Shown: in pieces, positions 19,068 to 32,000 of the stretch
Layout of the letters: each line of letters opens with the position of its first letter
Position numbering within the stretch: the stretch's first letter is position 1
From: Propionibacterium ruminifibrarum
GTDB lineage: Bacteria; Actinomycetota; Actinomycetes; Propionibacteriales; Propionibacteriaceae
Length of the DNA: 32,000 nucleotides
Direction: 5' to 3'
NCBI RefSeq assembly: GCF_900289195.1
Contig: NZ_OMOH01000012.1
Coordinates: 39,260-71,259, forward strand
Position numbers and translations under genes: made by a program
The notes under the pieces: model-generated
Databases searched by the model: none
What the model saw: only the letters and a program-made list of their open reading frames with translations
Told to the model about the DNA's origin: nothing

Positions 19068-19135
19068 TTCAATGAAAAAGTGAAACAGTGCGATCTAGGC
19101 TTGGGGCACCGCGAACACAGGAGCACGGAGGCACG

Positions 19136-21066
19136 ATGAACGGTCTTTCCCTCGGTGACGTGGCCCGGCTGGCGCGCGTCCGGCGTCCGGTCGTGTCGAT
19201 GTGGCTCAAACGGCACAAGGACGGCCTGCCCTTCCCCGAGCAGGACGCCGAAGGCCGTGTCGACGCCGACGAGCTCGTCGACTGGCTCGAGGCCACCGGT
19301 CGGGGCAACAACCCCGATGCCCGCGCCGAGGTGGCACTTCACAAGACGCTCACCCCGGGGGTCCCGGTCGAAGAACTCGAGGCGGTCCTCACCCTGCTTG
19401 CCGCCCGGGCCGTCACCGGTGTCGACGTTGTCGGCCTCGACCGTGACGACCTGCTCGACCGCGTGGAGGAACTCGACCCCGATGACGAGTGGCTGCTCGA
19501 CGAGACCGAACGGTGCTGGACGCCCGAACTCGCCGCCCGGGCCGATGCCGTCGCCGACGCCGCATGGAATGACGCCGCGGCCTACGAACTGCTCCACGGG
19601 CACCATCTCGCTCGTGGGGAGGCGACACGGCTCGCCGAACCCCTGGTGCGGCTGCTCGCCTCCACCGCACAGTCCATGCTGGACGACACGGGCCTGCTCG
19701 TCGATGTGCGGGGCAGCTGCTGCGATGTCGTCGTCGCGCTCGCAGCGGACGAGGAGCACGAGATGCCCGGGCTGCTGCTCGTCGCCGGCGACCTCGACGG
19801 GCTGCGCCCGATGCGCAGGCGGCTCGCGGTGCACGGGCTGAGCCCCCTGGTGGCCCGGCTCGACGAGGACTGGGCGCCACCGGCCGGTTCGGTCGTCCTG
19901 GTTCGGCTGTCCGATGCCTCGCCGGACGGACTCGACCTGCTCGACCGGGTCTCGCTGCAGTTGGGCGAGCAGGTGAGCCTGCTCGCCGTCGGCCCCTCGT
20001 CCCTGCTGGTCGACCCGCTCAGTGACACGACGGCTACGAGGCGCGACGAGTTGCTGCGCTCGGGCGTGGTCCGCGCCGTCGTCCAGCTCCCGGCGGGCGT
20101 GCTGCGGGGCGGCAGGGGCCGAACGGCCCTGTGGCTGTTGCGGGGAGGATCGGGGCAGGGGCCTCGTGGCGTCGTGCGGGTCGGCGATCTGTCCGGGCGT
20201 CGGTTCGACGCGGCTGTCCAGCAGGGGCTGCTCGATGACCTGCTCGCCAGCGCCGAGGCCTCCGGCTCGCATGTGTTCTCGGTGCTGCGTCCCGTGGCCA
20301 GGGCGCACCTGGTAGCCGGCCGGGGCCCTCTCGTGACGCCGGAGCGCGTCACCGTCCCGGTCATCGGGGCCACGCCGAGGCAGGACGCCGCACGCATGCA
20401 GCAGCTCTACGACTCGCTCGCCCAGGTGTTGCCGCCCTTCGGGAAGGGTTTCGATGTGGCCGTCGCGGACGACGACGTGCTGAGGGTCGAACGCATCTCA
20501 CTCGGCGCCGCTCTCGTGCGCCGCGGGGGAGAGACGTTGCTGAGGCTGCGCAAGGGGCGTCGTCTTCCCGAACTGGCGTCCGGCGAGTTGAGGCGGTGGA
20601 GGGCCGAGGACGTCGCGGCCGGTGCGCCCTCGCGGGTCGACAGGCTGGCGCTGACCGGGGCCGTGCCCGACCACGAGCTGACCGAGCCGGGCGACGTCGT
20701 CTTCACCGTGAGTCCGCGGCCCGCCGCCGTCGTCGACCGCAGCGGCGGTGCCGTGGTCGCCTATCCGGCGCGGGTCCTGAGGGTGACCGATCCGCAGCGG
20801 AGGCTGTCGGCGTCGGCCATCGCCGCGGTGATCAACGCCCGGGGTTCGGGGGACAGGGCCTGGCGCGGCTGGCTCGTACCGGTACGGGCCGTCGGTGCCG
20901 GGGACCCGGAGGAGTTCCTGACACACTTGGAGGGCTGGCGGGCCCTGCTGGAGCAGTGGAAGGCCCAGATCGACGAGCTGGGGGCCATGGTGATCGACTC
21001 GGCGCTGTCCGGGGCGGTCACCATCGGGGCGCGCGATGACGACAGGAACAACGAGGAAGGCCGCTG

Positions 21067-21067
<1 letters not shown>
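19136..21067 (+). CDS. HTH-domain protein with a degenerate N6-adenine-methyltransferase-like core and a TRD-like C-terminus (643 aa); first gene of the type I R-M operon
   Basis: ATG 19136 follows a GGAG RBS. The N-terminus LSLGDVARLARVRRPVVSMWLKR is MerR/excisionase-type HTH. The middle region parallels the adjacent HsdM segment by segment, but motif I is DVRGSCCD (versus DPCCGSGG) and motif IV is VRLSDAS (versus ANPPFNIS). The C-terminus parallels an HsdS target-recognition domain plus helix. Its stop overlaps the hsdM ATG (TGATG). Confidence 0.55.
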
Positions 21068-22736
<1,669 letters not shown>

Positions 22737-22737
<1 letters not shown>

Positions 22738-23912
22738 TGAGACTTGATCAAATTTGTACCCATATCGTTGACTGTGAGCATAAGAGTGCCCCGATTACTC
22801 CAGGTGGTGGGTTTTTTGCGGTCGGGACGCCGGCTATGCAAGGCAACGTCATTACTTACTCGGAGGCTCGCGAGATATCTGCAGAAACATTTGATCTGTG
22901 GACCCAGCGTCTCAAGCCCGAGAAAGGTGATCTACTTTTTGCTCGGGAAGCTCCAGTTGGTCCCGTTGTGATTATTCCTGCTGCGCTCAATGTTGCGCCA
23001 GGGCAAAGAACGGTTTTACTTCGCCCTGATCCGAGACTGGTTGATTCAAAATTTCTGTATTATAAAATTTCAAGTCCCGGGGTACAGAATAGCATTATGA
23101 ATTTTGCCATGGGGTCCACGGTGGCTCACATGAATGTTGTGGATGTGCGATCACTAGACCTTCAACTCCCATCTCTGGGTGAGCAGCGGGCAATTGCAGA
23201 GGTGCTGGGGGCTCTGGATGACAAGATCGCCGTAAATCGACGGCTTGTTGAGTCGATGGAAAGACTTCTCCGAGCTGAGTATCAAAAAAATATTGCCTCT
23301 AATGATGCTCCGAAGGTGCCATTATCTGATGTGGTGGAACTCAATCCTAGGCGCTTTATAAAAAATGAAGTGGCTCCTCGTATTCCCATGCAGTCACTTC
23401 CCTCTCCTGGTATGACAGTTGATCACATCACCTTCGAGAAGCCTAATGGTGGTGTCCGGTTTATGAATGGTGATACTATCTTGGCTCGCATCACGCCGTG
23501 TCTTGAGAATGGGAAAACGGCGTACATAGCTTGTCTGCAAGAAAATGAGGTGGGTTTTGGTTCAACCGAATACATTATCATGCGATCGCGAAATGGATAT
23601 CCTCTTGTGCTGACCTATTTCATTGCAACTGATGCAAGATTCAGGTCTGCCGTGATTCGACGCATGGTTGGAAGTTCGGGTCGTCAGAGGGTAAAGGCCT
23701 CGGATATTGAAGATCTCCCTGTTTTTCTGAATGGTGATCATGATGCGATGATGATTTTTGGGGAGCAGAGTGAAAAACGGATTATCTTGATGCAGAATCT
23801 GTCGGCGGAGTCCCGCACCCTCGCCTCGCTCCGCGACACGCTCCTGCCGGCCCTCATGAATGGCACCCTGCGCGTCAAGGACGCCGAGAAGCAGGTGGGG
23901 GAGGTGTTGTGA
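22737..23912 (+). CDS. hsdS: Type I restriction-modification system specificity subunit HsdS (two TRDs)
   Basis: Two TRD-plus-conserved-helix units are present (LPSLGEQRAIAEVLGALDDKI..., and C-terminal LASLRDTLLPALMNG). TRD1 starts IVDCEHKSAP. Its ATG overlaps the hsdM stop. The sequence is AT-rich except for the last ~110 nt. Confidence 0.9.
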
Positions 23913-26900
23913 TGATCACCGAGGCGCAACTCGAGGACAGCCTGCTCGACTGGCTCGGCGACCTGGGATGGGAACCCGGCACCGGGGCAGAACTGGAGTC
24001 CCAGCGGGCCACGCTGGGCGACCTTGTGCTGACCGGGGACTTCGTCGAGACGCTGCGGCTGCTCAACCCGTCCGTGCCCGACCAGTACCTGCGAGAGGCG
24101 GCCGCCGACATGGTCAGGGCCCGCTCCCAGGACGCGCCGGCCGAGAACAGGGACTTCCACGTCCTGCTCGTCCACGGCTACCGGGGCCTCACCTACGTGG
24201 ACACCAACGGCCGCGAGCAGATCCCCACCATCCGCCTGCTCGGCGCGCCGGAGCAGAACCGATACCGGGCCGTGCGGCAGGTGCGGCTCCGCCAGGGCGA
24301 CAACAGCCGTCGTCTCGACGTGGTGCTCTACGTCAACGGGCTTCCCCTGGTGGTCGTCGAACTCAAGCAGGCGGGCACGAGGAACGCCACCATCGCCAAG
24401 GCACACGCCCAGCTCGGCGCCTATCTCGCCGAGTTCCCGGCGGCCTTCCGCCCGGTCGTCGCCACCGTCGTGAGCGACGGCATCAACGCCCGCTACGGCA
24501 CGCCGTTCACCCGGCTCAACCACTACAGCCCGTGGAACGTCGACGAGGACGGCGCGCCCAGGCCGGCCGACGGCGAGCAGCTGCTCGAGCTGGAGAACCT
24601 CGCCCACGGGCTGCTGGAACCGGCCCGCCTGCTCGACATGGTCCGCAATTTCACGGCCTTCGACGAGACCGACGAGGGGTTGATCAAGCGCATCGCCAAA
24701 CCCCACCAGTACTTCGCCGTGCGCAAGGCGATCGACAGCACACTGGCGGCGCTGGGAAGCAACGGCAAGGCCGGGGTCGTGTGGCACACGCAGGGCTCGG
24801 GCAAGTCGATGGAGATGGAGCTCTACGCCAATCTCGTCCTCACGCACCCGCGCATGCACAACCCGACGATCGTCGTGATCACCGACCGCAACGAGCTCGA
24901 CGGTCAGCTGTACGACACCTTCGCCCGCTCAACGCTGCTGCCCGATCAGCCCAGGCAGATCAAACGCCGCTCCGAGCTGCGCAGCGAGCTCTCCGGCCGG
25001 GTCAGCGGGGGCATCTACTTCACGACCCTTCAGAAGTTCGGTCGTACCGCCTCCGAGCAGGACGCCGGTCACGCGCACCCGCTGCTCACCGACCGCCGCA
25101 ACGTCATCGTCATCGTCGACGAGGCCCATCGCAGCCACTACGACGACCTCGACGGCTACGCCCGGCACCTGCGCGACGCCCTGCCCAATGCCACACTCAT
25201 CGCGTTCACCGGCACGCCCATCAACGAGACGGACCGCAACACTCGCGAGGTGTTCGGCGACTACGTCGACATCTACGACCTGTCACGGGCCGTCACCGAC
25301 GGCGCCACCGTGCCCGTCTACTTCGAGCCCCGCCTCATCGAGGTGCGGCTCGATGATGACATGAGCGCCGAGAAACTCGATGAACTCGCCGACGAGCAGA
25401 CCTCCGGCCTCGACGACGAGGCGCGCGAGCGGGTCGAGCGCTCCGTGGCCGAACTCAACGCGATCTACGGCGCCCCCGAGCGCATCGACGCCCTGGCACG
25501 CGACATCGTCGAGCAGTGGGAGCGGCGCCGCGGGGCCATGACCGAGTTCTTGGCCCCCACCGGGCCCGACGAGAACCCGGACCCGCACGGCAAGGCCCTC
25601 GTCGTCTGCGCCACCCGCGAGATCTGCGCGCGGCTCTACGCCAGGATCGTCGAACTGCGCCCCGGCTGGCACTGCGACCAGGACGACCGGGGCCTCGTCA
25701 AGGTCGTCTACTCGGGTAGCCCCTCCGACCCCGAGCCGATCCGTGACCATGTGCGCCGCGACTCGCAGAACAAGGCGATCAAGAACCGGCTCCGTGACGT
25801 GGACGACGAACTCGAACTCGTCATCGTCAAGGACATGCTGCTCACCGGTTTCGACGCCCCGCCCCTGCACACCCTCTTCCTCGACCGGCCCCTCAAGGGC
25901 GCCCTGCTCATGCAGACGCTCGCCCGCGTCAACCGCACCTTCCGGGGCAAGCGGGACGGGCTGCTCGTGGCCTACGCGCCGTTGACCGAGAACCTCAACA
26001 AGGCCCTGCGGGAGTACACGGCGACCGACCAGGCGACCCGGCCCGTCGGGCGGGACAGCGACGAGGCCGTCCGAGTCACCGTGGAACTCGTCGAGGCCCT
26101 GCGCGTACTGCTGGCCGGCCACGACTGGCGCACCACGGCGACCAGCGGGGCGAGGGACGCCGGCCTGCGGGCCGTCGGCGAGACCGTCGAGTACCTGCGC
26201 TCCCCGGCCACCCCCGGCAACCAGGCCGAGCAGGAGGGCCAGACGCTCGGCGAACGCTTCCGCGCGCTGTCCGGCCGACTCGCCCGCATGTGGGCGCTGG
26301 CGGGCGGGGCCGAGAAACTCTCCGAGATCGCCACGGAGGTGCGCTTCTACGAGGAGGTGCGCGTGTGGATGGCCAAGCTCGACGCGCGCCAGCGCGAGGC
26401 GAGCGGCCAGCCCGTGCCAGAGGAGATCGTGCGCGTCCTGCGTGGGGCGGTGGCCCAGGCCACCGCTGCCGGCGACATCACCGATCTGTACGAGGCGGCC
26501 GGGCTGCCGAGGCCCTCCCTGCAGGAGCTCGACACTCAGACGCTCGACCAGATGCAGCAGGCCCCCAACCGGCACCTGGCGGTCGAGGCGCTGCGTGATC
26601 TGCTGGTGAAGGAGGCCGAGGCGGTGACGCGGAACAACGTCGTGCGCCGCAAGACCTTCAGCGAACGCATCAGCGAACTCATGATCCGCTACACGAACCA
26701 GCAGATCACCGCGGCCGATGTCATCTACGAGCTCGGCAGGATCGCCGAGGAGGTCAGGGGCGAGGCCGATCGCGGCACGAGCTTCGACCCGCCACTGAGC
26801 CACGACGAACTTGCCTTCTACGACGCGGTGAGCCAGAACGACTCGGCAGTGCTCGCCCAGGGCACCGACGTGCTGGCCCAGATCGCCCGCGAGCTCGTCA

Positions 26901-27094
26901 CGGTCATGCGCCGCGACACCCGCACGGACTGGACGCGGCGTCCGGAGGTGCAGGCGAAACTGAGGGCCAGCGTCAAACGGCTGCTGCGCCGCTACCACTA
27001 CCCGCCGGACAAGCAGAAGGGCGCGGTCGAGCTGGTCATCGAGCAGATGGAGACACTGGCGCCGAATTATGCGAGGGGGGAAGATTTGCTGTGA
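23909..27094 (+). CDS. hsdR: Type I restriction enzyme endonuclease/translocase subunit HsdR
   Basis: The N-terminal nuclease-type domain is followed by SF2 helicase motifs: TQGSGKS (Walker A), DEAHRS (DEAH box), and MLLTGFDAP...QTLARVNR. The protein is 1061 aa. GTG 23909 or ATG 23912 overlaps the hsdS stop. Confidence 0.95.
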   Translation: MMITEAQLEDSLLDWLGDLGWEPGTGAELESQRATLGDLVLTGDFVETLRLLNPSVPDQYLREAAADMVRARSQDAPAENRDFHVLLVHGYRGLTYVDTNGREQIPTIRLLGAPEQNRYRAVRQVRLRQGDNSRRLDVVLYVNGLPLVVVELKQAGTRNATIAKAHAQLGAYLAEFPAAFRPVVATVVSDGINARYGTPFTRLNHYSPWNVDEDGAPRPADGEQLLELENLAHGLLEPARLLDMVRNFTAFDETDEGLIKRIAKPHQYFAVRKAIDSTLAALGSNGKAGVVWHTQGSGKSMEMELYANLVLTHPRMHNPTIVVITDRNELDGQLYDTFARSTLLPDQPRQIKRRSELRSELSGRVSGGIYFTTLQKFGRTASEQDAGHAHPLLTDRRNVIVIVDEAHRSHYDDLDGYARHLRDALPNATLIAFTGTPINETDRNTREVFGDYVDIYDLSRAVTDGATVPVYFEPRLIEVRLDDDMSAEKLDELADEQTSGLDDEARERVERSVAELNAIYGAPERIDALARDIVEQWERRRGAMTEFLAPTGPDENPDPHGKALVVCATREICARLYARIVELRPGWHCDQDDRGLVKVVYSGSPSDPEPIRDHVRRDSQNKAIKNRLRDVDDELELVIVKDMLLTGFDAPPLHTLFLDRPLKGALLMQTLARVNRTFRGKRDGLLVAYAPLTENLNKALREYTATDQATRPVGRDSDEAVRVTVELVEALRVLLAGHDWRTTATSGARDAGLRAVGETVEYLRSPATPGNQAEQEGQTLGERFRALSGRLARMWALAGGAEKLSEIATEVRFYEEVRVWMAKLDARQREASGQPVPEEIVRVLRGAVAQATAAGDITDLYEAAGLPRPSLQELDTQTLDQMQQAPNRHLAVEALRDLLVKEAEAVTRNNVVRRKTFSERISELMIRYTNQQITAADVIYELGRIAEEVRGEADRGTSFDPPLSHDELAFYDAVSQNDSAVLAQGTDVLAQIARELVTVMRRDTRTDWTRRPEVQAKLRASVKRLLRRYHYPPDKQKGAVELVIEQMETLAPNYARGEDLL

Positions 27095-27259
27095 TCATCA
27101 GGAATTACGGAGCTAGAGTCGGTGATTTATACAGGTTCTCGAATGATTCAGCTGTCGCTGCTTCCGATTCAATGTGAAGGTTCGTCTAACTCAGATCCGC
27201 AGTAAATAAAGAGTATATGATGTCATTATTAACTCATTTTGTATGATTGGAGTTCTGCA

Positions 27260-28153
27260 ATGTTGGCGTACCGTAGTTCTTTTCATGTTTCGCAGCCCGT
27301 TGAAGAAGCATGGAGGACTGTCTCTTCGACGATGGTTAACTGGGCTGAGCGTAAACATCGCAAACAGCTAGGTCCAAAGGGTCTCTACGCACTGGAACCT
27401 AATTCTTCAATCGCCCTTAAATCGGGAATCAAGTTTACGATTATTGATTCGATTCAGCAGCCAGGTGATCGAATCTTTGGGTTTCAATCGGTCGAGCCAG
27501 ATGGCGATCACAAATGGACGAGTAAAGTTTTGGTTGCCGGTAATCCAAAACGAGATGATGAATCGGTTGTATCAATAATTATTGACGCGCCTGCAGATAA
27601 GCATGATCCCCTTCGTCCTAAATATGCAGAAGTTCCTAGGTTTGTGCGAAGTATGTTAGATCAGATGGATTGCGATGATTGTGGAATTCATCTGGGGAAT
27701 AAGCCTCGACAGCTAGATGTTGCCCTGATACCCACTCTTATTCGTGAACTGAAGGAAGATGATCATCACGGCTTAGTTCTTGTAGCGGGAACGCCGGCTG
27801 ACTTTCCATTTGAGCCGTGGAAGGAATTCATTGCTGACACGACCAAAAATACTGTAGGTCAAAGTGCAACGTACGTTTTGGATGTTGAAGCTACTAACTA
27901 TTTCAACCAGCACGTGTCGAAATACCACAGGGTAGATCCAGGATCTCTTCGGAGCTTTGTTCCAGGGGCAGACTTTGACGATCCCCTAGACGGAAAACGC
28001 CATAGGTTTATAACAGCTAAAACGCTGGCTGATGATCAGCTGAGAAAAGCAGCATCCAGCATCATTACGCGTCGTTCTCGGGCGTTCACGAACTCGCGAC
28101 CAATTGATAGAAAAACTCGTCGATACAATGAGGCTTATTCACAGCTCCAATGA
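27260..28153 (+). CDS. Hypothetical protein (297 aa), AT-rich orphan gene immediately downstream of hsdR
   Basis: ATG 27260 follows GGAG (27248-27251) with 8-nt spacing. It is a long uninterrupted ORF in AT-rich DNA, where random ORFs are short. I recognise no motif in MLAYRSSFHVSQPVEEAWRT... Confidence 0.6.
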   Translation: MLAYRSSFHVSQPVEEAWRTVSSTMVNWAERKHRKQLGPKGLYALEPNSSIALKSGIKFTIIDSIQQPGDRIFGFQSVEPDGDHKWTSKVLVAGNPKRDDESVVSIIIDAPADKHDPLRPKYAEVPRFVRSMLDQMDCDDCGIHLGNKPRQLDVALIPTLIRELKEDDHHGLVLVAGTPADFPFEPWKEFIADTTKNTVGQSATYVLDVEATNYFNQHVSKYHRVDPGSLRSFVPGADFDDPLDGKRHRFITAKTLADDQLRKAASSIITRRSRAFTNSRPIDRKTRRYNEAYSQLQ

Positions 28154-28288
28154 ATCAATCCATGACTAGGGGTTTCATCACCCTCTGGGTCTCTGTGAAT
28201 AAGCCTCAATGAGATATTCGATCAAAAAATTCGAGGAATTGATTCCCTGGCTCGATCTAGTACCAATGTTGATGGTGCTACTAAAAAA

Positions 28289-29230
28289 ATGGAGCCAGTG
28301 GCAGTGCAAGTCAAAGCAAATGCTGCTCACAAGTTGTCTCCGAAGTCAAATAATAGTGCTAGCGTCAAAGAGCTTACACCGCTCCAAAAAGATCTTGACC
28401 AAGTTCGAATGCAACTCGCCGAAGAACGGCAGAAGAATTAAGAACTGCGATTCAAATTCGAATATGCACGGTTTCTTCTGGAACAGCGCGCGGAAGAGCT
28501 TAACACGTTAGAAGACCGGCTGAAGGTGGTAGTTTCTGAACGAGATGAACACGAACTCAACTATACGGTAGTCTTAGAAGAAAAAGATGATGCGCTTACG
28601 CGCGCAGAAAAATCTGAGGCTCGAGTGTCGTATTTGTTGTCAAGATTACAGCAATCGGAACTGACAGCTGATGATTGGGGCTGGCAGTCTAGTGTTGAAG
28701 AAGTAAAAACCCCATCAAGTTGGACCGAGCTTGTCGAATGGGCTAATTCTGGATATTTAGAAAAGTGTTTGCCGTGGCTTTGTTTTACGTGTGATTGGGA
28801 TCGTGCGTTAGATCTTGATGACCAAAATGAGTGCGCTTGGATAGCTACTACTTGGGATATAATCAGAACTCTCAATGATTATGGGCGCGCCTGTCAAGAC
28901 GAGAAAATATCTGTGACTAGTCTCTATAATTATCTCAAGGAGCCTCCTTCTGGGTATAGATCTGTTCCGCTGAGGCGTTATAAAGCAACCGAATCTGAAT
29001 CTGTTACAAATCGAAAACGCTATCGAATAGAGCGCATCTTCCCGGTTCCGCAAGAAATTGAAGGTCGTGATGAGAATGGCATGATATATATGGATAAACA
29101 CTTTGTTATTGCCAAAGCTGGAATGATATCACCACGTCTATACTGTCATGATGGCACTGGTAATCGTAGGTATGGCAAAGTCGTCATTGGCTATATTGGC
29201 CGCCATTTGACTAATGATCAGACGAATTAA
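28289..29230 (+). pseudogene. Coiled-coil protein gene interrupted by an in-frame TAA (28439-28441); unknown C-terminal globular domain
   Basis: The same frame reads MEPVAVQ...TPLQKDLDQVRMQLAEERQKN * ELRFKFEYARFLLEQRAEELNTLEDRLKVVVSERDEHE..., so heptad-like sequence continues across the stop. Downstream of the stop the only in-frame start is GTG 28526, which has no convincing RBS (track ORF 28526..29230). Confidence 0.5.
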
Positions 29231-29256
29231 ATATGGCCATGATGAAACAAAGAGAT

Positions 29257-30066
29257 TTATTTAGGGTGTAGGTGAATGTGATTCCGAGTATTGCAGTGAT
29301 GGTGTCGGGAGGCGTCTGTGGCGGGTTTTGAGAGTGTGCCAGGTTTTGAGATTGGCATGACCTGTTCGATCTGCCATCTGATTTTGTTGATGGCCCGGTT
29401 GTAGTTCTTGTGGGTTTCTGGTTTGGGTAGTCCGGCTGGTTTCTTGACGGGAGTTATCAGCCCTGTTCCGGCGTATCTTTTGTCTGCGATGTGCCGGATG
29501 AGAGGGCATCGGGGTGGATCATTGCTCGTGAGCTCACTGTTGGGGTGGAGGAGGCCTGATTCGGTGAGGGCCCGGGCGTCGTGGGTGCGGCCGGGTAGCG
29601 GGTCGGACACCCAGGCGAGGTGTCCGGTCAGGGTGCAGGCCACTTGGAGGTTGGCTCCGGTGGTGTGGTGTTTACCGGAGTAGAGTTCGGGCTTGTCGCG
29701 CCATGCCCAGCAGGGTATGAGGGTGCCGTCGATGATCAATTGGGTGTCCGGGTCGAGGCCGTCGGCGGTGGGGACGTTCTGTTCAAGGATGCCGGCGATC
29801 AGGGGTGTCCAGGCGGTCAGGACGCGTGAGACGGTGGGCTGGGAGATGCCGAAGAGTTCTGAGAGGGATTCTTGTTCGAGGTTGTGGCGTAGGCTGGCCA
29901 GGACGAGTCGGATGCTCTGGTAGGGGCCGAGCCTACGTGATCCGGCCGCTGGCAGGGCACCATTGACCGTTGCATGGATTTTCTGGCACAGGTCTTGTAT
30001 CTGAGTGTGGGTCAGTCGTGTGATAGCATGTGGCCTGCGGCCTGTCCCTTGATTGTTTCTTTTCAC
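29257..30066 (-). CDS. IS5-like DDE transposase (DDE_Tnp_4 type), probably frameshifted near its C-terminus
   Basis: It has an HTH (LSELFGISQPTVSRVL), then LIIDGTLIPC, YSGKHHTTGANLQV, IADKRYAG and NRAINKIRWQIEQV. The expected continuation (I)ANLKTWHTLKT... is found in another frame (track ORF 29261..29509), implying a 1-nt indel near 29355-29362. Confidence 0.7.
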   Translation of the reverse strand: MKRNNQGTGRRPHAITRLTHTQIQDLCQKIHATVNGALPAAGSRRLGPYQSIRLVLASLRHNLEQESLSELFGISQPTVSRVLTAWTPLIAGILEQNVPTADGLDPDTQLIIDGTLIPCWAWRDKPELYSGKHHTTGANLQVACTLTGHLAWVSDPLPGRTHDARALTESGLLHPNSELTSNDPPRCPLIRHIADKRYAGTGLITPVKKPAGLPKPETHKNYNRAINKIRWQIEQVMPISKPGTLSKPATDASRHHHCNTRNHIHLHPK

Positions 30067-30153
30067 ACATTAATCATCTCGGGACAGGCCGTCCCTTCGT
30101 CTTCAATGACACGCCTCATACGAGATCATCCAAAACCACTCGAACAAACCCTA
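29262..30153 (-). mobile_element. Small IS5-like insertion sequence (~0.9 kb, DDE_Tnp_4/HARBI1-type transposase)
   Basis: It is GC-richer than the surrounding AT-rich DNA. Its ends are TAGGGTGTAGG... (29262) and ...ACCCTA (30148-30153), imperfect inverted repeats sharing the terminal TAGGGT. It sits between two convergent genes. Boundaries are approximate. Confidence 0.55.
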
Positions 30154-30168
30154 TGAATGAGCCTCACT

Positions 30169-31101
30169 CTAGGGTGAATTTCTTGATTCCATGGCTCGCG
30201 ATGGGTCGGCAAACTGCTCGTCTGTGAGCGGTGGTCGATTTATTCCATATTCAGGATCATCATGCACATCGAATCCTGACGTATTTCGAATGAAGCGGTA
30301 AACGGGGCTTACGAGAACACATGAGGGAAGAATAAAATGTTTGACAAAAGGGTTGGATTCTGATTCTAGGCGAACGTAATACCGCCCCTTTGGCCCTCGG
30401 AAATAGTAAGGGCTCTCGCCTATTGGTTGAAAAATGCGCTCTATCAATGAGCTGATTTGTTGTATGGCTGTGAGCGCAGTTTCTCGTGCTTCGCCTGAAT
30501 CAAGTTCGGACTGATAATGGATAGCCGTGTTGCGCATCTTCATCAAAGCTCTGTACCCTCTCACTGTTTCATCATCGAAGATGCCCCATTCTCGTAAAGC
30601 ATCGATACACTTGTCCCACTTATTGATAGACTCCTTGCTTTTGACATACTTAGTTGCAGGGCAGTTTTTATATTTGTCCTCGTCTCTTAATGTGAGAACC
30701 AATTGGTTTAGGATTCTTTCGCCAAGCCCGCAGGCTCCTAGGAGTGCCGGATAATAGCACTGTGCAACAAAGGCGTCTCGAATCTGTTCTAGATAGATAC
30801 TATGAAGTGCGATAATCGACCAAGGGGCGTTGCCAAGATCAATGAAATTTTGAACTTTATGTCGATAATTATTAGCTCCGAAGTCATGGATTAGAGACTC
30901 CCTGATCTTGGCCTGATTTTCTTCCCATTGAGCCCTTATGAGTGGGGCACAATCCTCCTCAAGTGGAACAGTTAGACAGTGTGATCGTGTATCGAATGTC
31001 ATATTGACAGGGAGGAAACGGCGCGATCCATCATTGGGTCCCCGCTTGCGTCCGGGTTCAATCTTGACGGCTTGAGCTTTGTCATTGGTGAGATCTGTCA
31101 T
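30169..31101 (-). CDS. HEPN-motif protein (310 aa), candidate abortive-infection/RNase-type defence effector
   Basis: ATG 31101 follows an AGGAA RBS. The Rx4H motif RNTAIH (nt 30534-30517) lies in an alpha-helical context (YRALMKMRNTAIHYQSELDSGEARETALTAIQQISSLIERI). Upstream, YYPALLGACGLGERILNQLVL resembles helix 1 of HEPN domains. The gene is AT-rich. Confidence 0.6.
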   Translation of the reverse strand: MTDLTNDKAQAVKIEPGRKRGPNDGSRRFLPVNMTFDTRSHCLTVPLEEDCAPLIRAQWEENQAKIRESLIHDFGANNYRHKVQNFIDLGNAPWSIIALHSIYLEQIRDAFVAQCYYPALLGACGLGERILNQLVLTLRDEDKYKNCPATKYVKSKESINKWDKCIDALREWGIFDDETVRGYRALMKMRNTAIHYQSELDSGEARETALTAIQQISSLIERIFQPIGESPYYFRGPKGRYYVRLESESNPFVKHFILPSCVLVSPVYRFIRNTSGFDVHDDPEYGINRPPLTDEQFADPSRAMESRNSP

Positions 31102-31269
31102 TTTGAGTTCCTAAGATATTGATGCTTATCCATAGGACAAGCTTGGATCATTGTCAGTTGCCTTGCGTGGGGCGTGTCGCAGGAGGCGAAAGAGCGGTCC
31201 GCGCTGAGACAATTAATGCGTGGCCAAAACAATCAAAGAACAGACTGCATGCCATATGCTATCACGCGG

Positions 31270-32000
31270 CTAGCTGTAGTTGCGCATGACGTTGGTGATG
31301 CCGGTGGGGAGTCGTGTGGCGGGGGGCTGGTCTCGGCAGGCGGTGTGGGGTCGGTGGTAGTTGTAGTGGATGTTCCAGATGGCGACGGCTTGGGCTCGTT
31401 CGGTTTCTGAGTGGTAGGGGCGGGCGTAGAGAAGCTCCTCGGCCAGGATCCGGTTATAGCGCTCAACCTTGCCGTTGTGTCGTGGCGTGTAGGGCCGGGT
31501 CCGCTGATGGGTGATGCCCTGGGTTTTGAGTCGGGCGGTGAACAGTTCGCTGGTGTAACACGGCCCGTTGTCAGTAATCACGCGAGTGATCTCGGTGATG
31601 CCGTGGGCGGCGAAGAAAGCTTGCGCGTTGCGCCAAAACTCCAACACGGTGGCGGCTTTCTCATCGGTATGGGGTTCGGTATAGGCCAGCCAGGAGAACC
31701 CGTCGATTGCCGAGTGCAGGTAGGCGTAGCCGACCTTCTGCCGCGGGCCAGCCTTGCCGCGGCCGCGAGACCGCCAGCCCCCACCATCGAGGATCCGTCC
31801 GACCTTCTTCACATCCAGGTGGACCATGTGGCCCTTGTAGCGGGCAGTGATCTTGCCCGGCTTGCGCAACAGCTCGCCGTCGACATCAAACCAGCGGCGA
31901 CGATTCAACCCCAGCCGACGAAGCCAACGACCGACAGTGGCCTGAGAGATCTCGACGCCTGTGTCGGTGAGCTCGATCCAGATCAACCGCGCCGACCACT
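31270..32000 (-). CDS. IS481-family transposase (rve integrase core), N-terminus outside window
   Basis: HLDVKKVGRI...GYAYLHSAIDGFSWLAY...VITDNGPCYTS...RPYTPRHNGKVERYNRILAEE...YNYHRPHTA is typical of IS481/IS3-superfamily DDE integrases. The frame stays open to the window edge. The IS end probably lies between about 31150 and 31270. Confidence 0.85.
   Translation of the reverse strand, partial: WSARLIWIELTDTGVEISQATVGRWLRRLGLNRRRWFDVDGELLRKPGKITARYKGHMVHLDVKKVGRILDGGGWRSRGRGKAGPRQKVGYAYLHSAIDGFSWLAYTEPHTDEKAATVLEFWRNAQAFFAAHGITEITRVITDNGPCYTSELFTARLKTQGITHQRTRPYTPRHNGKVERYNRILAEELLYARPYHSETERAQAVAIWNIHYNYHRPHTACRDQPPATRLPTGITNVMRNYS

Follow-up and report, generated by a model that had tools for sequence, protein, structure and literature searches.

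Does the AT-rich DNA that follows a type I restriction-modification (R-M) operon in Propionibacterium ruminifibrarum hold a two-gene defence system, or something else? The question is raised by a 32,000-nt stretch of this genome (contig NZ_OMOH01000012.1, positions 39,260 to 71,259; hereafter the window), in which the hsdR stop codon at 27094 is followed by about 4 kb of mostly low-GC sequence. A sequence-only reading of this DNA had described there, co-oriented with hsdR, an intact 297-aa open reading frame (ORF) with no recognizable motif and a coiled-coil ORF that is interrupted by one stop and ends in an unknown domain, and had proposed that the two might form a two-gene system of a previously uncharacterised kind. 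Our analysis leads to another answer, namely that the segment 27260-29230 probably represents the remains of one horizontally acquired single-gene anti-phage system, located 3' of the type I R-M operon and inactivated twice, once by a miniature inverted-repeat transposable element (MITE) and once by a nonsense codon.

Are the two ORFs separate genes? Straight translation of the forward strand revealed that the 297-aa ATG ORF (ORF A, 27260-28153; 100% identical to PROPJV5_2353), a short piece at 28289-28441 and a 234-aa ORF at 28526-29230 share the same reading frame, which spans 656 codons (27260-29230) and is broken by four in-frame stops. Three of these stops are clustered at 28151-28198, where a 19-nt inverted repeat surrounds them, and the fourth is a TAA at 28439-28441 in the coiled-coil linker. 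The clustered stops lie within a 78-bp MITE (28130-28207) that is bounded by perfect 15-bp terminal inverted repeats (GAGGCTTATTCACAG) and flanked by an AAT target-site duplication (28127-28129 and 28208-28210). Because the MITE and one 3-bp duplicate add up to 81 bp, i.e., 27 codons, the two gene halves stay in frame. In-silico excision of these 81 bp yielded a 629-codon frame in which the TAA at 28439 is the only stop, and the restored junction (...RRYNEIFDQKIRGIDSL), which reads RRYNEIFDQKI, matches the family pattern at this point. Residues 1-290 of ORF A (27260-28129) are native, and residues 291-297 are encoded by the MITE.

The organization of the relatives was in agreement with a single gene. 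The nearest ones, P0002 (500 aa) and P0003 (498 aa), are single proteins whose N-terminus corresponds to ORF A and whose C-terminus corresponds to the downstream ORF, with a match that runs to the terminal ...GYIGRHLTNxQTN, and in P0007 the middle segment is joined to the coiled coil and the C-terminal domain in one protein. An exhaustive HMMER search with ORF A (E ≤ 1e-3) retrieved 481 representative proteins, most of them 600-680 aa long; among the 150 matches listed almost all are single proteins of that size, and six of the seven full-length relatives that were read end with a shared motif, ...GYIG(R/P)HL.N.QTN. The 656-codon read-through at 27260-29230 is therefore of normal family length, and ORF A and the coiled-coil ORF are fragments of one gene of about 630 codons. 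It could be argued that two long ORFs that are kept separate in the public annotation (P0001 and P0006), each of which folds confidently alone, are two co-operating genes of a two-gene defence system. We find this hardly credible, since the ORFs share one frame, they are separated by an 81-bp insertion and become fused once it is removed, the listed relatives are nearly all single proteins, the final seven residues of ORF A come from the MITE, and the second ORF requires that another stop be ignored. What had been described from the sequence was correct in part: the 297-aa ORF exists and the long helix does contain one internal TAA, but the former is an N-terminal fragment with a MITE-encoded end and the gene as a whole carries four stops.

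What is the element that splits the gene? The terminal repeat of the insert, when up to three mismatches were allowed, was counted five times in the window, against an expectation of 0.38; two of the occurrences are the MITE ends and two are the outer ends of IS5-like insertion sequence (IS) copies located further downstream. A metagenome scan for two exact terminal repeats 35-65 bases apart returned at least 120 contigs (L097-L216). Among the contigs listed there are at least 123 copies, of which 115 are exactly 79 bp long; identical 3-bp flanks were present in 96 of 123 copies (78%; 1.6% by chance), and the insertion sites are distinct, with at least 113 different flank pairs. About 20 of the listed MITE-bearing contigs also encode IS5-like transposases, and one contig, L199, carries a full IS element with 79% DNA identity to the IS in the window, whose ends, GAGGCTTATTCATGG and GAGGCTTGTTCATGG, are near-identical terminal repeats. 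The repeats common to full IS5-family elements, the 3-bp duplications and the many sites identify the insert at 28130-28207 as a MITE of this IS5-family lineage. A small inversion, marked by the 19-nt repeat, was considered as an alternative and rejected: the inverted segment still reads a stop, and the target duplication and the copies elsewhere indicate an insertion.

The element shares with IS5-family MITEs a length of 78-79 bp, the non-coding nature, perfect terminal repeats common to an autonomous IS5-family element, the 3-bp target duplication and the presence of many copies at distinct sites; it differs in that the window MITE was matched to no named MITE family. The window copy has diverged and is about 75-77% identical to the common metagenome copies. 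These copies have a central AAACCCCTAGTCA core in common, and the listed contigs that bear them show a median GC content of 0.59. One MITE-bearing contig, L203, encodes a distant HEC-07-like member of the protein family discussed here (31-37% identity to the window fragments). Being abundant in metagenomes, this MITE family could serve as a marker of IS5-family activity.

What kind of protein did the gene encode? The native N-terminal part (residues 1-290) comprises an alpha/beta domain and a thioredoxin-like domain, presumably a sensor or regulatory module. ORF A matched the PADLOC profile PDLC04161 of HEC-07 (E 2.3e-9, profile positions 34-305 of 553), and the start of the downstream ORF matched positions 361-419 of the same profile. 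In PADLOC, HEC-07 stands for Hma-embedded candidate 07 and is represented by four profiles (PDLC04158-04161); 59 of 63 family members matched a HEC-07 profile in the PADLOC scan. When the family profile was compared by hhalign with the first ~400 residues of the tested Pseudomonas aeruginosa HEC-07, a probability of 96.6% (E 5e-10, 195 columns) was obtained. HEC-07 is a single protein that reduced plaquing of phages in Escherichia coli, and it consists of an AdoMetDC-like domain, a thioredoxin-like domain that lacks CxxC, and a C-terminal RelE-family RNase (10.1101/2024.01.29.577857). The AlphaFold model of ORF A (pLDDT score 96.8, predicted template modelling score (pTM) 0.92) was searched with Foldseek, and its second domain resembled thioredoxins (2n5a, probability 1.00, target template modelling (TM) score 0.64; also 7ysi and 3pin). 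As in HEC-07, the thioredoxin-like domain has no CxxC: the loop that follows strand 172-177 reads AGTPADFPFEPW and contains no Cys. A CDDC motif is present at residues 138-141 of ORF A (27671-27682), where the first Cys alone is common to the closest relatives; it sits in a hairpin away from the thioredoxin active-site position and is probably not a redox site. Judged from these comparisons, the N-terminal half shares ancestry with HEC-07, a single-protein defence that has been validated, so that the absence of a recognizable motif claimed for ORF A did not hold.

The C-terminal fragment (28526-29230) contains the last part of the coiled coil, then a helical subdomain and a predicted BECR-type RNase domain (about 28970-29227), and it matched the PADLOC profile PDLC03912 of NsnC, a protein of the Menshen system (E 1.1e-4). 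The same profile was matched by 59 of 63 family members (best E 6e-14, profile positions about 146-314 of 316), and in the proteins inspected individually the NsnC matches, where present, lie within positions of about 133-314. In the alignments four residues of the domain are invariant, H192, P203, R204 and H227 (numbering of the 234-aa ORF), and three of them, H192, R204 and H227, correspond to the H-R-H triad that was reported for PB-BECR1, the part of NsnC predicted to be its RNase effector (PMC12065111). The AlphaFold model (pLDDT 92.7) shows a long helix, the helical subdomain, and then a helix and four strands in the order H158-168, E171-173, E186-194, E204-210 and E218-225, an order compatible with a YafQ/RelE-like BECR fold, with the final three strands carrying or adjoining the three invariant catalytic candidates. 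Foldseek found nothing significant in the PDB for the 234-aa model, the domain profile gave chance-level matches only against PDB sequences, and hhalign detected no similarity between this profile and E. coli YafQ; hence, the assignment of the BECR fold rests on homology to NsnC's C-terminal domain (NsnC-C). On this basis the C-terminal domain, previously described as unknown, is taken as a homologue of the Menshen NsnC PB-BECR1 domain and as a predicted RNase.

Is the family simply a divergent orthologue of canonical HEC-07, with the same RelE/YafQ-like C-terminus having become NsnC-like through drift and with no exchange of domains? The N-terminal half and the coiled coil follow the HEC-07 profile to about position 413, and the length, the single-gene organization and the association with Hma are the same. 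Furthermore, the catalytic His543 of HEC-07 lies ~10 residues from the C-terminus, the invariant H227 here lies 7 residues from it, and toxins of the YafQ family served as reference structures both for HEC-07 (4LTT) and for NsnC-C (4NRN). Against these likenesses stands the behaviour of the profiles, because in the window ORFs, as in the 18 relatives inspected, none of the four HEC-07 profiles aligns past about position 420, whereas NsnC profiles match the C-terminus of most members, with E values down to 5e-14. No full-length HEC-07 match was found among the listed relatives (best score 93 bits), and no canonical HEC-07 proteins were found when the shorter family members were scanned with PADLOC. 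We consider the orthologue explanation unlikely, if still a serious contender, and regard the family as what the profile matches indicate, a little-described variant in which a HEC-07-type N-terminal half is coupled to a Menshen-type RNase. The label of uncharacterised module must be narrowed accordingly: both halves have described homologues, and the family itself is little described and annotated as hypothetical.

Where are the intact relatives found? A scan of one genome per species with a 12-sequence alignment located relatives at 409 places in species-representative genomes; the taxonomy was taken from the best 80 of these, which are all from Actinomycetota. In Gordonia alkaliphila (L022), PADLOC identified HmaA (E 0), HmaB (E 0) and HmaC (E 5e-243) directly upstream of the family gene; in Lentzea (L023), a type I HsdR on the upstream side and, downstream, a PD-T4-6 kinase; and in Micromonospora (L024), a PDC-S37/Hhe-like helicase and a 278-aa unknown protein upstream. 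At another locus (L016) the family gene lies between HmaA and HmaB. Neighbours within 10 kb were counted by local tblastn over 78 loci: Hma was present at 13 of them, a PDC-S37-like helicase at 17 and an hsdM-like methylase at 14, with at least one of the three at 41. Metagenomic relatives have Wadjet, GmrSD_N, HipA and Fic genes in their vicinity (L004 has Wadjet, GmrSD and HipA), and the window gene itself is co-oriented with hsdR and directly follows it. Ten family matches reside on actinobacterial plasmids, all annotated as hypothetical. No family match was found among 50,697 phage records, and the neighbours of the homologues are defence systems, so that the phage or metabolic contexts that would speak for another role were not encountered. 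The defence-island context proposed for this DNA is thus borne out by the complete type I R-M system upstream, by the intact relatives beside or inside defence loci, and by the foreign composition.

In addition, a conserved co-oriented trio was observed at L024 (4904-11845) and at 15 or 16 other Micromonospora, Salinispora or Verrucosispora loci. Its members are a PDC-S37/Hhe-like helicase of 1352 aa, a 278-aa protein for which PADLOC gave no match and the family gene, and together they may constitute a multi-gene system.

RNases of the BECR type occur widely among toxin-antitoxin and polymorphic toxin systems (PMC12065111; 10.64898/2026.08.28.747851), and toxin-antitoxin-type genes (HipA, a YoeB fragment, Fic) lie near some relatives. 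The family might then be an intracellular toxin, an addiction module or a polymorphic toxin with no part in phage defence, and its proximity to R-M and Hma genes would merely reflect shared variable islands. We judge this improbable: no conserved small antitoxin or immunity gene was noted beside it at the examined loci, the protein lacks a secretion-associated N-terminus, the family gene repeatedly stands directly after or between defence-system genes in the same orientation, and the related HEC-07 is an experimentally active defence.

How might such a protein work, and what happened to the copy in the window? The ancestral protein of ~630 aa would have consisted of the alpha/beta and thioredoxin-like domains, the coiled-coil linker, the helical subdomain and a C-terminal RNase of the BECR fold. 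In intact relatives the N-terminal two-domain module, together with the coiled coil, through which the protein may oligomerise, would hold the RNase silent until a cue of infection is sensed; the activated RNase would then cleave RNA and stop translation, leading to abortive infection or to a direct attack on phage RNA. In the window, one inactivation would be the insertion of the 78-bp MITE with its 3-bp duplication, which keeps the frame by chance and brings three stops, and the other would be the separate nonsense codon in the linker. The frame ends inside the MITE and a further stop lies beyond it; hence, the window copy is most likely inactive, i.e., a pseudogene. With frameshifts absent and every invariant residue retained, the disruption looks recent.

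Several points weigh against the interpretation of the segment as a dead member of a defence family. Both fragments are still long ORFs with folds and catalytic residues intact, and the loss of function is deduced from the sequence; likewise, the defensive role of the family and its RNase activity are predictions. The identity to the tested HEC-07 is 14% over the 195 columns, so that the homology is distant. The first domain of ORF A retrieved no AdoMetDC or spermine synthase among the top 50 Foldseek matches, and its best matches are to helix-grip/START/Aha1-like proteins, which are marginal (E 2e-3 or worse, TM ≤ 0.37). The C-terminal ~130 positions of the HEC-07 profiles stay unaligned in the proteins inspected, as said above. 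Finally, many of the counted neighbourhoods are from one genus, Micromonospora, whose loci are one conserved arrangement and therefore count as a single evolutionary event, and some of the hsdM-like matches could be other methylases.

The preserved folds and invariant residues, and the recent disruption suggested by the lack of frameshifts, could also mean that the locus still functions, for example if the free C-terminal fragment acted as an RNase that the N-terminal fragment inhibits in trans. However, translation of the C-terminal ORF would need to begin at a GTG within the coiled coil, a further stop lies between the MITE and 28526, scans for promoters and terminators gave only chance-level signals, and this arrangement was found in no relative. 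We therefore hold a functional split locus to be very improbable, and a non-functional copy remains the preferred reading.

Damage is also seen in other members. The closest relatives, P0002 and P0003 (loci L001 and L002), are without ~130 residues and have TAAQPAV at the deletion junction, P0007 is without a different block of 46 residues, and at locus L003 a frameshift is required in order to join the N-terminus. Decay of the HEC-07-like gene thus appears to be recurrent. The suspicion that the cassette is in decay was correct; its main gene carries both a MITE and a nonsense codon.

From where was the gene acquired? The GC content of bases 27095-31150 is 0.476, compared with 0.692 in hsdR, and it falls to 0.39-0.46 directly past the hsdR stop. 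The drop to AT-rich DNA that had been described is therefore real, but it is not uniform over the ~4 kb: the main gene (27260-29230) has a GC content of 0.446 and the segment with the HEPN gene described below 0.457, whereas the IS5-like element reaches 0.577 and the IS481 element at the right end 0.629. The GC content at third codon positions (GC3) is 0.35-0.39, versus ~0.9 in host genes. This low GC, together with an identity of only 50% to the nearest relative, points to acquisition of the main gene from an unsampled, lower-GC donor.

The upstream R-M system is complete and co-oriented with the main gene, with all three genes full length in the PADLOC scan. On the forward strand it comprises hsdM (21067-22737; MTase_I, E 2e-175; GC 0.678), hsdS (22737-23912; Specificity_I, E 8e-68; Pfam Methylase_S; GC 0.495) and hsdR (23909-27094; REase_I, E 1.6e-233, full length). 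The hsdS gene is AT-rich, with a GC3 of 0.48 against 0.93-0.94 in the flanking, host-like hsdM and hsdR, which suggests that the specificity subunit has been replaced via horizontal exchange. Upstream of hsdM lies a 659-aa high-GC ORF (19088-21067) whose stop overlaps the hsdM start; no match to it was found in Pfam and PADLOC scans, and it may represent a further R-M-associated gene.

What else does the cassette contain? As had been proposed, a convergent gene with a HEPN motif is present on the minus strand (30169-31101); it is intact, stands alone and encodes 310 aa. Its match to the Pfam HepT-like model (E 9e-4, 19.3 bits) is below the cut-off of 23.5. The search for its homologues gave 387 at E ≤ 1e-3, with lengths of ~300 aa among the matches listed; R190-x4-H195 (RNTAIH) is invariant in 30 of 30 homologues, and only 4 of 30 matched any HEPN-clan model. 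The PADLOC scan gave no match for the gene. Relatives were located next to ThsB_TIR and PIN_12 genes on a TrwC-relaxase element and next to a 1227-aa SIR2_2 protein. The gene fills a 955-bp segment (30166-31120), in which no HepT-MntA-type nucleotidyltransferase antitoxin or partner ORF was found. The invariant Rx4H, the weak matches confined to HEPN-clan Pfam models and the defence or mobile-element contexts are shared with HEPN RNases of the HepT/DUF4145/Cthe_2314 type; in contrast to these, the protein is ~300 aa long, has a conserved ~150-aa N-terminal extension, falls below every Pfam HEPN threshold and has no adjoining MNT-type antitoxin. From these features it is best described as a divergent HEPN protein, a predicted stand-alone RNase that is independent of the main gene.

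The outer ends of two inverted IS5-like copies bracket the HEPN gene exactly (30166-31120), in a layout that resembles a composite transposon. Copy 1 (29251-30165, minus strand), the IS5-like element already recognized from the sequence, contains an ORF at 29257-30066 (DDE_Tnp_4, E 9e-18; HTH_Tnp_4; NCBIfam IS5). It is defective: compared with L199's intact 275-aa transposase it shows two frame changes near the C-terminus, and the terminal repeat on its left side is degraded. No target duplication was found around copy 1, the flanks being AAA and ACT. Copy 2 is a diverged stub on the plus strand (31121-31274), inverted with respect to copy 1 and made up of the outer end and the start of the transposase gene. 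It was recognized by a 45-nt inverted repeat, 82% complementary, by an alignment to the 5' end of copy 1 and by a terminal-repeat match at 31121-31135. An IS481-family element on the minus strand (31275-32000) is inserted in copy 2, so that, as the sequence-only reading had stated, IS481 bounds the cassette; its transposase starts at about 31275 and it runs off the window. The window end truncates the ORF, and its score against NCBIfam transpos_IS481 (E 3.6e-65) for this reason falls slightly short of the cut-off. The IS481 end reads TGTAGTTGCGC (TGTAG...) and is preceded by GCTAGC (junction at 31269-31275). The target preference reported for IS481 is NCTAGN; GCTAGC fits it, and its CTAG also supplies the stop codon of the transposase. 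Altogether, the cassette at 27095-31150 is a decayed defence islet.

For P. ruminifibrarum these results mostly correct the annotation, in that two "hypothetical proteins" turn out to be halves of a single defence gene that is most likely dead, and the MITE responsible can be followed at single-base level. The family, in turn, is present at hundreds of places in actinobacterial genomes, annotated merely as hypothetical. It connects two systems that were described separately, HEC-07 and Menshen, via common modules, and it repeats the pattern of being embedded in Hma or type I R-M loci by which HEC-07 was discovered; the findings are in favour of a modular shuffling of defence effectors and sensors. 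Intact candidates for testing are available in Gordonia, Lentzea and Micromonospora, and few such systems have been tested in Actinomycetota.

A broader proposal, which we advance tentatively and with a confidence somewhat short of even, is that the actinobacterial family is a distinct single-protein defence, a HEC-07-type sensor joined to a Menshen-type PB-BECR1 RNase, that is coupled to the neighbouring DNA-targeting system. If this is true, functional coupling would account for the usual position of the gene, 3' of or within Hma, type I R-M and PDC-S37/Hhe loci, with the protein acting as a PrrC-like back-up that fires when the neighbouring system is inhibited, and the Micromonospora trio would be a multi-gene system.

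How does the gene compare with known systems? Like HEC-07, it encodes a single protein of similar length with homologous alpha/beta and thioredoxin-like N-terminal domains that lack CxxC, followed by a coiled-coil linker and a small C-terminal RNase (predicted here) with the catalytic His near the C-terminus, and the family genes are embedded in or adjoin Hma and other defence systems. It differs from HEC-07 in the C-terminal ~130 profile positions, in whose place there is a domain that is similar in sequence to the PB-BECR1 of NsnC; in the host range, the tested HEC-07 being from Pseudomonas and the best 80 of the 409 family loci all from Actinomycetota; and in the state of the window copy, which is a pseudogene. 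With Menshen NsnC it shares the C-terminal ~150 residues, which match the NsnC profiles and in which the H-R-H triad is invariant. In contrast to NsnC, no inPIN N-terminal domain is present, and NsnC profile positions below about 133 are unmatched in the proteins inspected; the effector is joined instead to a HEC-07-type N-terminal module and acts, if at all, as a single gene. NsnA (ParB-DUF262) and NsnB (ABC ATPase) are not found in the window, where the neighbours are hsdR and an IS element; in relatives, the adjoining genes that were identified are those of Hma, HsdR, PDC-S37 and Wadjet. Finally, as with RNases of the PrrC/RloC type, a (predicted) RNase gene is co-oriented with hsdMSR and may provide a second line when restriction is blocked; unlike those enzymes, the protein has no ABC-ATPase domain and a different nuclease fold, and its gene is located after hsdR rather than among the hsd genes.

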